Positions 2,059 through 45,312 of a stretch of DNA of 64,000 bases are shown here, piece by piece. The translations under genes were made by a program, and so were the position numbers. How positions within the stretch are numbered: the first letter of the stretch is position 1; every line of letters starts with the position of its first letter. The stretch comes from Escherichia coli (lineage in GTDB: Bacteria; Pseudomonadota; Gammaproteobacteria; Enterobacterales; Enterobacteriaceae). The stretch lies in NCBI RefSeq assembly GCF_003790525.1, contig NZ_CP033633.1, one strand, 5' to 3'. The notes under the pieces are model-generated. The model saw only the letters and a list, made by a program, of their open reading frames with translations, was not told the DNA's origin and did no database searches.

Positions 2059-2334
2059 CTACCTGTTTTCTCGTGTGTGCCACAGGCGCAATACATAAAT
2101 AGTCTGGCCATTAAGTTCGTAACGGATTTCGTACTCGCCAGCAAAAATCCGTCTGACCTCCCTGGGTTCAAACTGAAACAACTGTTCTCCCATACGTGGA
2201 TGAGTTAACAGAATGACCGGTGCCTGTGTCAGGGACTGCACCGTTCTGGCGGCCGCAGGTTTACTGGCCAGCACCAGAAAATCATATAACCGCGCCAAAT
2301 CAGAAAGCGCCTTACTGGTCCACTTCAGTTCCAT
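2059..2334 (-). CDS. RelE/ParE-family toxin
   Basis: 91-aa protein with RelE/ParE-like C-terminus (YVLRLWHTRE); start overlaps the stop of the upstream antitoxin ORF. Confidence 0.7.
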   Translation of the reverse strand: MELKWTSKALSDLARLYDFLVLASKPAAARTVQSLTQAPVILLTHPRMGEQLFQFEPREVRRIFAGEYEIRYELNGQTIYVLRLWHTRENR

Positions 2335-2618
2335 CAGCGTGGCACCGGTAACGGATTGTCAGTACTGAGGCTGTCCGCCCAGGCCTGTACAGCCTGATGG
2401 TCGATAACCTGTCCGGATTTCACATCGTCCAGGGCTTCCAGCGTCAGGCGATTACGCTCCTCCTCCTGGGCAAGCCATGCAGAAAGCGCCTGTTTGATAA
2501 CCCAGCCCCGGGAGCGTTCCAGTCTGGCGGCCATCTGGTCGACTTTATCAGCCATTGGTAATGGCACATGCGCGGTAATGACTTTTGTTGCCTGTGCGGT
2601 ATTGTTTTTCATTTGCAT
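2334..2618 (-). CDS. Ribbon-helix-helix (CopG/ParD-like) antitoxin
   Basis: Small ORF immediately upstream of and overlapping the toxin; RHH-like segment. Confidence 0.6.
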   Translation of the reverse strand: MQMKNNTAQATKVITAHVPLPMADKVDQMAARLERSRGWVIKQALSAWLAQEEERNRLTLEALDDVKSGQVIDHQAVQAWADSLSTDNPLPVPR

Positions 2619-3002
2619 ACCCGATTAGTTGTTAATCATATTTAATCATAGTGATTACTTTCAGACGGAACAAGGCAAATAATGCGCGTCAGCGCATGTA
2701 AGGCGGCACTCCGTTGTTGCATATGGCACAGGAGTAAAACCGCCGAAGCCCGGCGTAAGCCGGTACTGATTGATAGATTTCACCTTACCCATCCCCAGCC
2801 CTGCTAAGCCATACCCGCTTTCAGCCATGAGAGAGCTTCTGTGCGCGGTCGGAGTGGTCCCGACGAGGGTTTACCCGAAGTCGGGACGTATCTCCGCGTT
2901 AGCGGGGTCAGTTTGGAATTCGGAAAATAAACCATGTTAAGACTATTTTTTAGCCAAAGGGCTTTCAGGAATCGCCAGAATGGCGGGGCAACAGTGGTTT
3001 TG

Positions 3003-3100
3003 GTGTCCGAAATCGACCTGTTTCGGACATTGTTAAACAGATATATCCGAAAGTCAGCAAAATTACTTTCGGACATGCATTATAATATGTACACCCATTT
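3003..3100. promoter_or_regulatory. Putative res site (resolvase binding subsites)
   Basis: Imperfect palindromes TGTCCGAAA...TTTCGGACA and TCCGAAAGT...ACTTTCGGA directly upstream of the serine recombinase gene. Confidence 0.4.
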
Positions 3101-44651: not shown

Positions 44652-44719
44652 AAATCATGTAGACAGGGTGATTAAATCACCGTAATGTGTCCTCGTTGTG
44701 TATACATTATGGGGGAGAT

Positions 44720-44968
44720 ATGCGAACACAGGTGACACTGCAAAAATGGGGCAACAGTATTGCTCTCCGGTTAACCGGAAATCTGAAAACCGTGCCGGGT
44801 TTTTCGGCAGGAGATGTGGTTGATGTGGAAATCAGTGAGAAAGGATTGATCGTGGAAAAACCGGTGAGACCTCGTCTTACAGAGGCTGTATTGCTTGCGG
44901 GGCTGACGCCATTTTCCGCGCATGCAGATGAAGCTGCCACTCTTCTTGATAAGGAGAGTGAGTTCTGA
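44720..44968 (+). CDS. pemI: PemI/MazE-family antitoxin
   Basis: 82 aa AbrB-type (MRTQVTLQKWGNSIALRL) after RBS GGGGGA; start of the toxin overlaps its stop. Confidence 0.75.
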   Translation: MRTQVTLQKWGNSIALRLTGNLKTVPGFSAGDVVDVEISEKGLIVEKPVRPRLTEAVLLAGLTPFSAHADEAATLLDKESEF

Positions 44969-45312
44969 TGTTTGTTCCAAAGCGTGGTGATATTTGCTGG
45001 CTTGATTTTGAACCCCAAAAAGGAAAAGAAATTGGCAAATATCGTCCGGCATTAATCCTGTCCCATGAGCAATATAATCGTTTAACAGGGCTTGTCATAT
45101 GCTGCCCTGTCAGTACGAGTATCCGGGGCGCTCCAACAGAGGTTCCTGTTACTAATCTCGATGCACCAAGTGTGGTGGCCACAACGCTCATACAGACACT
45201 TGACTGGCGGCAAAGGCAAGTGCGTTTAATTACGGAAGCAGAAGAGGGCGTATTTGATGAGGTGCTTGAGAGAGTGATCACTCTGATTGGTGGTGAACAT
45301 TTACTGAAGTGA
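44968..45312 (+). CDS. pemK: PemK/MazF-family endoribonuclease toxin
   Basis: 114 aa; N-terminal PKRGDICWLDF. Confidence 0.8.
   Translation: MFVPKRGDICWLDFEPQKGKEIGKYRPALILSHEQYNRLTGLVICCPVSTSIRGAPTEVPVTNLDAPSVVATTLIQTLDWRQRQVRLITEAEEGVFDEVLERVITLIGGEHLLK

Follow-up and report, generated by a model that had tools for sequence, protein, structure and literature searches.

Does a plasmid fragment of 64 kb really harbour four separate toxin-antitoxin (TA) operons of type II, are all of them intact, and who would profit from their presence? The fragment in question, in the following referred to as the window, comprises 64,000 nucleotides of contig NZ_CP033633.1 (Escherichia coli, assembly GCF_003790525.1), and a preliminary description had assigned to it a RelE/ParE-like pair with an RHH antitoxin as well as vagCD, ccdAB and a pemIK-like pair. 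The window originates from an IncK2/Z conjugative plasmid of avian (chicken) E. coli, a virulence plasmid with a ColBM/ColV-type mosaic insert, and is 99-100% identical to the IncK2/Z chicken E. coli plasmids pE15-3 (NZ_CP119749.1), pEF5-18-41_2 (NZ_CP063494.1) and others. Our analysis indicates that it very probably contains four independent, intact type II TA operons which would serve as post-segregational killing (addiction) modules. The genes concerned, together with a recombinase gene belonging to the third operon, are the following:

2334-2618, minus strand: RHH (CopG/ParD-type) antitoxin, 94 amino acids (RHH_1, PF01402, at residues 14-51, E 1.2e-10)
2059-2334, minus strand: ParE-family toxin, 91 amino acids (ParE_toxin, PF05016, 62.1 bits, E 7.7e-17, profile positions 1-88 of 89)
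13999-14229, plus strand: VapB/VagC antitoxin (AbrB/SpoVT-type), 76 amino acids (NCBIfam VapB subfamily, 88.1 bits, cutoff 60)
14226-14642, plus strand: VapC/VagD PIN-domain toxin, 138 amino acids, GTG start (PIN, PF01850, E 7.6e-15)
18638-18856, plus strand: CcdA antitoxin, 72 amino acids (NCBIfam equivalog, 159.5 bits, cutoff 100)
18858-19163, plus strand: CcdB gyrase poison, 101 amino acids (NCBIfam equivalog, 214.2 bits, cutoff 147)
19164-19973, plus strand: ResD-type site-specific recombinase, the third gene as in the ccd operon of F (open reading frame and homology to F)
44720-44968, plus strand: MazE-like (AbrB-type) antitoxin, 82 amino acids (33% identity to E. coli MazE, E 4e-10)
44968-45312, plus strand: MazF/PemK-family endoribonuclease toxin, 114 amino acids (PemK_toxin, PF02452, 87.3 bits, E 1e-24)

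The open reading frames lie exactly where the four pairs had been placed, their family-model scores are far beyond chance, and in the near-identical RefSeq plasmids pE15-3 and pEF5-18-41_2 all four pairs already carry a PGAP annotation as type II toxin-antitoxin. The assertion that all of them are intact holds as well. No frameshift or stop interrupts any of the reading frames, each of the six TA proteins other than CcdA and CcdB exactly matches a database protein present on 998 to at least 1000 contigs, and the key residues are kept; the loss of catalytic residues, named beforehand as the observation that would count against intact pairs, did not show up on alignment for any catalytic or target-binding position. 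Merely the claim that stop and start codons overlap in all pairs has to be narrowed to three of them: the junctions of the RHH/ParE and the mazE/mazF-like genes read TGATG (1-nt overlap) and that of vapB and vapC reads GTGA (4-nt overlap), but ccdA and ccdB are separated by a 1-nt spacer (TGA-A-ATG), as they are in F. The finding is correct and at the same time ordinary and already known, as the pairs had been annotated before, are widespread and typical of such plasmids, and the multi-addiction pattern has been published. Reading the raw sequence had thus led to genuine genes under nearly correct names while adding little that is new.

The name ccdAB turned out to be correct, being borne out by the equivalog models and by identity to F. 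CcdB shares 100 of its 101 residues with F CcdB (I56V) and ends with NLMFWGI, while CcdA is identical to F CcdA (2ADL) at 66 of 72 positions, the remaining six being substituted. The residues Trp99, Gly100 and Ile101 of CcdB are required for gyrase poisoning, and this C-terminal W99-G100-I101 motif is intact in the window protein. Because of its near-identity to F CcdB, the toxin is predicted to have DNA gyrase as its likely target. The cassette is present in 3033 PLSDB records (at least 80% coverage, here and in the corresponding counts below).

For the second pair, the designation vagCD proved right at the level of the lineage. The Salmonella Dublin vagD amplicon for quantitative PCR (primers from PMC13188875) is colinear with window positions 14244-14319 and has the same length of 76 bp; its reverse primer site (14304-14319) contains one mismatch, and the forward site is colinear with about six mismatches. 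In pE15-3, PGAP names the antitoxin gene vapB. The toxin aligns with solved structures of tRNA(fMet)-specific VapC at E ~1e-28, the catalytic residues D7, E42, D98 and E119 of the solved enzyme corresponding to D8, E46, D103 and E124 of the window protein, and its identity to characterised VapC enzymes amounts to about 41-45%. Judged from these alignments, VapC/VagD is probably a PIN ribonuclease which would cleave initiator tRNA. The cassette occurs in 4766 PLSDB records. As a possible source of vagCD, pSLT was ruled out since it possesses only an MvpAT-type pair whose toxin is 41% identical.

The label “RelE/ParE-like with RHH antitoxin” for the first pair was right and could be narrowed to ParE-type by ranking of folds. 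An AlphaFold model of the toxin (pLDDT 84.5) adopts a beta-alpha-alpha-beta3 topology, and its 21 best PDB matches found by Foldseek are toxins of the ParE fold with TM scores of 0.67-0.74, among them those of Pseudomonas aeruginosa and Mesorhizobium, E. coli O157 ParE2, Mycobacterium tuberculosis ParE1, Vibrio ParE2 and Caulobacter ParE1. RelE, YoeB and YafQ rank below them (TM 0.45-0.6). Since the ParE-family folds outrank those of RelE, YoeB and YafQ, we use the ParE-type label and suggest gyrase as the likely target; on the basis of the modelled fold, the 91-residue protein is probably a gyrase poison. Relatives with at least 75% identity are spread across the Proteobacteria, from Enterobacteria to Pseudomonas, Burkholderiales and Rhizobiales, and all residues invariant within this family, including W5, G49, W85, H86 and R91, are present in the window toxin. 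Among solved structures, its antitoxin comes closest to CopA_SO (7ETR_A) and to ParD of P. aeruginosa (6XRW_B); it is identical to WP_012006537.1 from pAPEC-O1-ColBM. In that plasmid the RHH-ParE pair of the window is likewise present, adjoining the same resolvase and an eitABCD-like iron transporter, and the cassette is found in 1441 PLSDB records. Identity of the pair with the characterised ParDE-I (YacAB) was ruled out as the primers for the ParDE-I toxin and antitoxin have their sites in yacAB (pAPEC-O1-ColBM, L006 8417-9059). When window positions 2000-2298 (299 bases) were used as query, hundreds or more of Klebsiella and E. coli plasmid records matched only the 3'-terminal 240 bp of the toxin gene and the downstream flank, with 92.4% identity. 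These records, which contain neither the antitoxin nor an annotated feature, look like a widespread remnant of a ParE toxin gene; query coverage is under 80% for roughly half of the 2847 matches.

With respect to the fourth pair, the label “pemIK-like” is valid at the level of the superfamily but does not reflect a close kinship to PemIK, the toxin being 28% identical to PemK of R100 compared to 38% to E. coli MazF. PGAP names the antitoxin AbrB/MazE/SpoVT or MazE; it scores weakly in Pfam (17.3 bits, cutoff 24.7) and below the cutoff of the MazE equivalog model (20.1 bits, cutoff 113). R26 and S49 of the toxin align with the catalytic residues R29 and T52 of E. coli MazF, and a serine at the position of Thr52 is, as far as the alignment tells, a conservative change. 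By analogy, the toxin would cleave single-stranded RNA. In the window, in pEF5-18-41_2 and in pRM10042-1, that is, in all plasmids examined, the pair is located directly downstream of nikB, and in pRM10042-1 (86.6 kb) it lies between nikB and trbC. It is rare, being present in 14 of 72,556 plasmid records and in 15 of 5426 complete E. coli genomes, where it is always plasmid-borne.

Several observations weigh against four functional addiction operons. VapC remains under the cutoffs of the NCBIfam equivalog models for tRNA(fMet)-specific enzymes (122.8 versus 140 and 107.9 versus 143), and the MazF-like toxin under that of the MazF equivalog (94.5 versus 120). The ParE-like pair is without a close characterised relative, its sequence matches in the PDB reaching only E ~0.004, and neither a paper mentioning the RHH-ParE proteins by their RefSeq accessions nor a functional study of this family was found in the literature searched. 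ParE toxins have no defined catalytic residues. Furthermore, the candidate operators described below are short repeats that may occur by chance, and nothing resembling a sigma-70 promoter was detected in the interval from nikB to the MazEF-like pair, whose genes may therefore be transcribed by read-through from the relaxase operon. One may argue from such data that at least one pair is functionally dead despite its open frames, its toxin being attenuated or its antitoxin being kept as a repressor only. The I56V exchange in CcdB, the six substitutions in CcdA, the serine replacing Thr52 in the MazF-like toxin and the scores of VapC and MazF below the equivalog cutoffs would agree with this. All the substitutions are, however, conservative, and none affects the WGI motif of CcdB or the four acidic residues of the PIN domain; the alleles exactly match proteins present on about 1000 or more contigs, and the toxin is always found together with its antitoxin. 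We therefore consider a dead pair very unlikely and retain the reading of four intact operons.

How would these operons act? In each of them the upstream gene would encode a labile, DNA-binding antitoxin, and the overlap or near-abutment of stop and start codons would couple its translation to that of the downstream toxin gene. The antitoxin would neutralise the stable toxin and repress its own promoter, whereas a cell having lost the DNA would retain the toxin and become poisoned. The toxin targets are likely to differ among the four pairs. At the expected operator position 5' of all four pairs we found repeats or palindromes, which are given here together with a hairpin following vapC:

2632-2664, minus strand: promoter-like site with two direct TATGATTAA repeats spaced by 10 nt (one helical turn) over the -10 hexamer; candidate operator of the RHH antitoxin
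13904-13973, plus strand: promoter-like site (13934-13962) embedded in repeats of 17-nt periodicity and in the palindrome ATACATATGTAT; candidate operator of VapB
14646-14672, both strands: GC-rich, terminator-like hairpin directly 3' of vapC
18587-18637, plus strand: ccd promoter/operator region with GTATAC-type repeats, diverged from but homologous to those of F and pSLT
44667-44712, plus strand: inverted repeats GGTGATT/AATCACC and CCGTAATGT/ACATTATGG just 5' of the mazE-like start; candidate operator

If so, four addiction modules, unrelated to one another and directed at three or four different targets in the cell, would render the plasmid, and the insert pieces bounded by insertion sequences (IS), hard to lose or to cure, which is of relevance to the persistence of plasmids of the avian pathogenic E. 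coli type in poultry.

The preliminary description had further suggested that the TA pairs stabilise individual modules of the mosaic. The genomic context bearing on this proposal comprises these features:

1-1960: IS66 copy
8356-9125, 10607-11378 and 20055-20835: IS1 copies
15150-16460: IS3 copy
20819-21730, minus strand: N-terminal fragment of colicin B, 303 amino acids
21817-22377: second resD, truncated
22514-23427, minus strand: RHH protein and ParA-like ATPase
23656-25024: ParM and Plasmid_stab_B (StbB) protein

The IS copies split the first 22 kb of the window into segments, and RHH-ParE, vapBC and ccdAB are each located on a different one. Their backbone neighbours are decayed, as is evident from a C-terminal relaxase fragment, the colicin B fragment and the second resD, which is truncated at its N-terminus. 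The three pairs may be considered surviving pieces of former plasmid backbones within an IS-riddled insert of ColBM/ColV type: ccdAB-resD would stem from a RepFIA-type region and RHH-ParE from a site just downstream of an IncFII/IncI-type origin, while vapBC adjoins a truncated second relaxase gene. The MazEF-like pair, in contrast to these other three, is to be assigned to the conjugative backbone, between nikB and trbC, of a small IncK2/Z-IncI sub-lineage. The presence of intact TA operons amid truncated backbone genes fits a counter-selection of deletions removing them and equally fits selfish persistence, so that the evidence for module stabilisation is circumstantial. Seen as selfish hitch-hikers, RHH-ParE, vapBC and ccdAB would persist since their deletion kills the cell, and they would add little stability beyond that provided by the plasmid's own partition systems and the backbone MazEF-like pair. 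All three adjoin truncated remnants of other backbones with IS copies in between, the replicons which once accompanied them are absent from the window, and the plasmid possesses two partition loci (ParA-like/RHH and ParM/StbB) as well as two resolvases. Moreover, such cassettes do decay, as hundreds of records retain only the ParE toxin remnant (query bases 1-299, 92% identity). On the other hand, hitch-hiking requires the same molecular mechanism and differs only in the beneficiary, and intact alleles identical to widespread ones argue for ongoing selection. We thus regard hitch-hiking as quite possible though, on balance, doubtful.

Some further observations concern the same region. The second NikB-type relaxase is represented by an open reading frame of 528 amino acids (12327-13913, minus strand) which corresponds to the C-terminal 55% of the protein and shares 67% identity with nikB (41949-44651); the frame is cut at its N-terminus and adjoins the vapBC promoter region. 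Compared to the closest relative pE15-3, the window has an IS1 in place of the colicin M and immunity genes (20055-22377). The two partition systems adjoin each other where the IncK backbone begins (22514-25024).

Upstream of the RHH-ParE cassette, a conserved, hairpin-rich element of 226 bp was recognised by alignment and blastn:

2672-2897, minus strand: 226-bp element upstream of the RHH-ParE cassette
L005 6156-6369 and 42067-42292, L008 4673-4897, L014 40301-40514: further copies
L006 8297-8368: partial copy

Folded as DNA, the element attains a z-score of about -2.6. Matches were obtained by blastn in pAPEC-O1-ColBM (two full-length copies and a partial one), pEC27-3, a Shigella dysenteriae plasmid and R100. 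In related plasmids the element is situated downstream of an IncFII/IncI-type replicon (repA), in pEC27-3 and R100 at a distance of a few hundred bases from repA, while the window copy is present without any rep gene. It possibly represents an origin-distal priming (G-site-like) region. Directly after its last hairpin, unrelated cassettes follow in the individual plasmids, namely RHH-ParE, Phd-RelE/ParE, YacAB/ParDE-I or, in R100, tir-pemIK. This would allow for the idea, to our mind rather unlikely, that RHH-ParE is one occupant of an exchangeable TA slot marked by the element; such a slot would be a recombination hot spot at which addiction modules are swapped beside the replicon.

Four TA pairs within 64 kb are not unusual. 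That such redundancy is typical of large mosaic plasmids, as had been stated, agrees with the content of pAPEC-O1-ColBM (174 kb), which harbours six type II loci (three vapBC, Phd-RelE/ParE, RHH-ParE and yacAB) and two Hok genes, and with published surveys. IncF and IncI plasmids carry several addiction systems, PCR surveys having yielded an average of about 1.9 for each IncF plasmid and as many as four in a recipient (PMC3701463), and a ColV-type poultry plasmid contains five TA loci, the relBE-type ones being located beside replication genes (PMC4285173). Searching the window for additional systems by tblastn gave, as a soft negative, chance-level matches only, both for the type I toxins Hok, SrnB, PndA, Ldr, TisB, Ibs, ShoB and SymE and for the type II proteins HigB, RelE, YoeB, HicA, Doc and YafQ, the best of all these matches (HigB, E 0.005) lying inside parM. 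At Rfam gathering thresholds, no sok-type or antisense RNA was detected in the window, the only hits being ALIL, a group II intron and STAXI, and a mechanical scan of the window for further small adjacent pairs of open reading frames revealed nothing convincing. A helix-turn-helix protein (39271-39522, minus strand) was dismissed as a TA member as it has no credible partner frame, and the reading frames at 55059-55481 were dismissed as TA genes as they match no family.

A fifth TA-like module, missed by the preliminary description, is present at 37750-39240 on the plus strand. It starts with an Rpn gene (YhgA-like, PF04754; about 37750-38715) that encodes four-residue (GIQQ)n repeats and contains an internal start of RpnS type (MTIAERLEQ...), an arrangement of RpnL toxin and intragenic RpnS antitoxin as in PMC10400941, where the long/short toxin-antitoxin arrangement and its role in phage defence were demonstrated. 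Two free-standing RpnS-like reading frames follow the Rpn gene (38715/38778-38951 and 39010-39240). Compared to pEF5-18-41_2 and pRM10042-1, the C-terminal domain of the window Rpn is tandemly duplicated, and the repeat numbers differ. Free RpnS copies in the leading region might serve as decoys against Rpn toxins of a recipient. For pRM10042-1, the PGAP annotation includes a DinQ-like type I toxin (dqlB; L010 12216-12311) just past trbA, a position whose equivalent lies beyond the window end; by analogy, one or more additional toxin loci may be present on the plasmid outside the window.

It is conceivable that some of the four pairs act mainly in anti-phage abortive infection or plasmid competition rather than in vertical stabilisation. 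Families such as ParDE-I have been linked to stress tolerance (PMC6614396), and the neighbouring Rpn module belongs to a type which is a demonstrated TA-like phage defence (PMC10400941). Yet none of the eight TA proteins matches a PADLOC defence model. In addition, ccdAB of F is the classic plasmid stabiliser. We accordingly hold a predominantly defensive role to be improbable and adhere to the assignment of the four pairs as addiction modules.

The remainder of the accessory DNA may be described briefly. Between the MazEF-like pair and trbC an IS-dense region (45339-59405) contains IS3 copies, IS100/IS21 and IS66. ALIL frameshift pseudoknots of IS3 copies are found at 45905-45991 and 15485-15601, a group II intron with a reverse transcriptase at 48527-48613, and a STAXI RNA motif (Rfam RF01728, 70.4 bits) at 51839-51996 on the minus strand, within the IS-rich accessory region of 45.3-59.4 kb. 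The corresponding region of pEF5-18-41_2 contains astA, the EAST1 gene. The genes trbC (59594-61867), trbB and trbA are intact.

Finally, the four pairs may be compared with known systems. The ccdAB-resD locus has the gene order ccdA-ccdB-resD in common with RepFIA of F, to which it is 94% identical at the nucleotide level over 18616-19958. In contrast to F, the upstream region of the window is diverged, repE, sopABC and pif do not adjoin ccd, and the locus is ended by an IS1 82 bp after resD. With vagCD of S. Dublin, MvpAT of Shigella pINV and VapBC of Salmonella LT2, the vapBC pair shares an AbrB-type antitoxin followed by a PIN toxin, the 4-nt overlap and the four acidic residues. Two VapBC copies of pAPEC-O1-ColBM are 91-93% identical to it at the protein level, whereas the VapC (MvpT-type) located between traD and traI in pSLT and pAPEC-O1-ColBM is only about 41% identical to the window toxin. 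The solved ParDE systems, that is, P. aeruginosa ParDE1 (6XRW), Shewanella ParE_SO/CopA_SO (7ETR), PaaA2-ParE2 of E. coli O157 and Caulobacter ParDE1, likewise have an RHH gene preceding that of a ParE-fold toxin about 90 amino acids long but differ from the window pair in sequence, identities amounting to only 15-26%. ParDE-I (YacAB) of IncI and IncF plasmids (Kamruzzaman and Iredell 2019, PMC6614396) has the superfamily and the type of plasmid in common with the RHH-ParE pair. The location of the ParDE-F primer shows that in pJIE512b it likewise follows the origin-distal element described above, and of the primer sites only this upstream one is shared. The MazEF-like pair resembles MazEF and PemIK/Kis-Kid in the succession of an AbrB-type antitoxin and a toxin of the PemK/MazF fold, in the catalytic arginine and in the 1-nt overlap. 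Its toxin and antitoxin are 38% and 33% identical to those of E. coli K-12 MazEF (chpA), compared to 28% and 30% for the R100 proteins of the PemIK (R1 Kis-Kid) system. As to its position, it directly follows the nikB relaxase gene and not the replicon.

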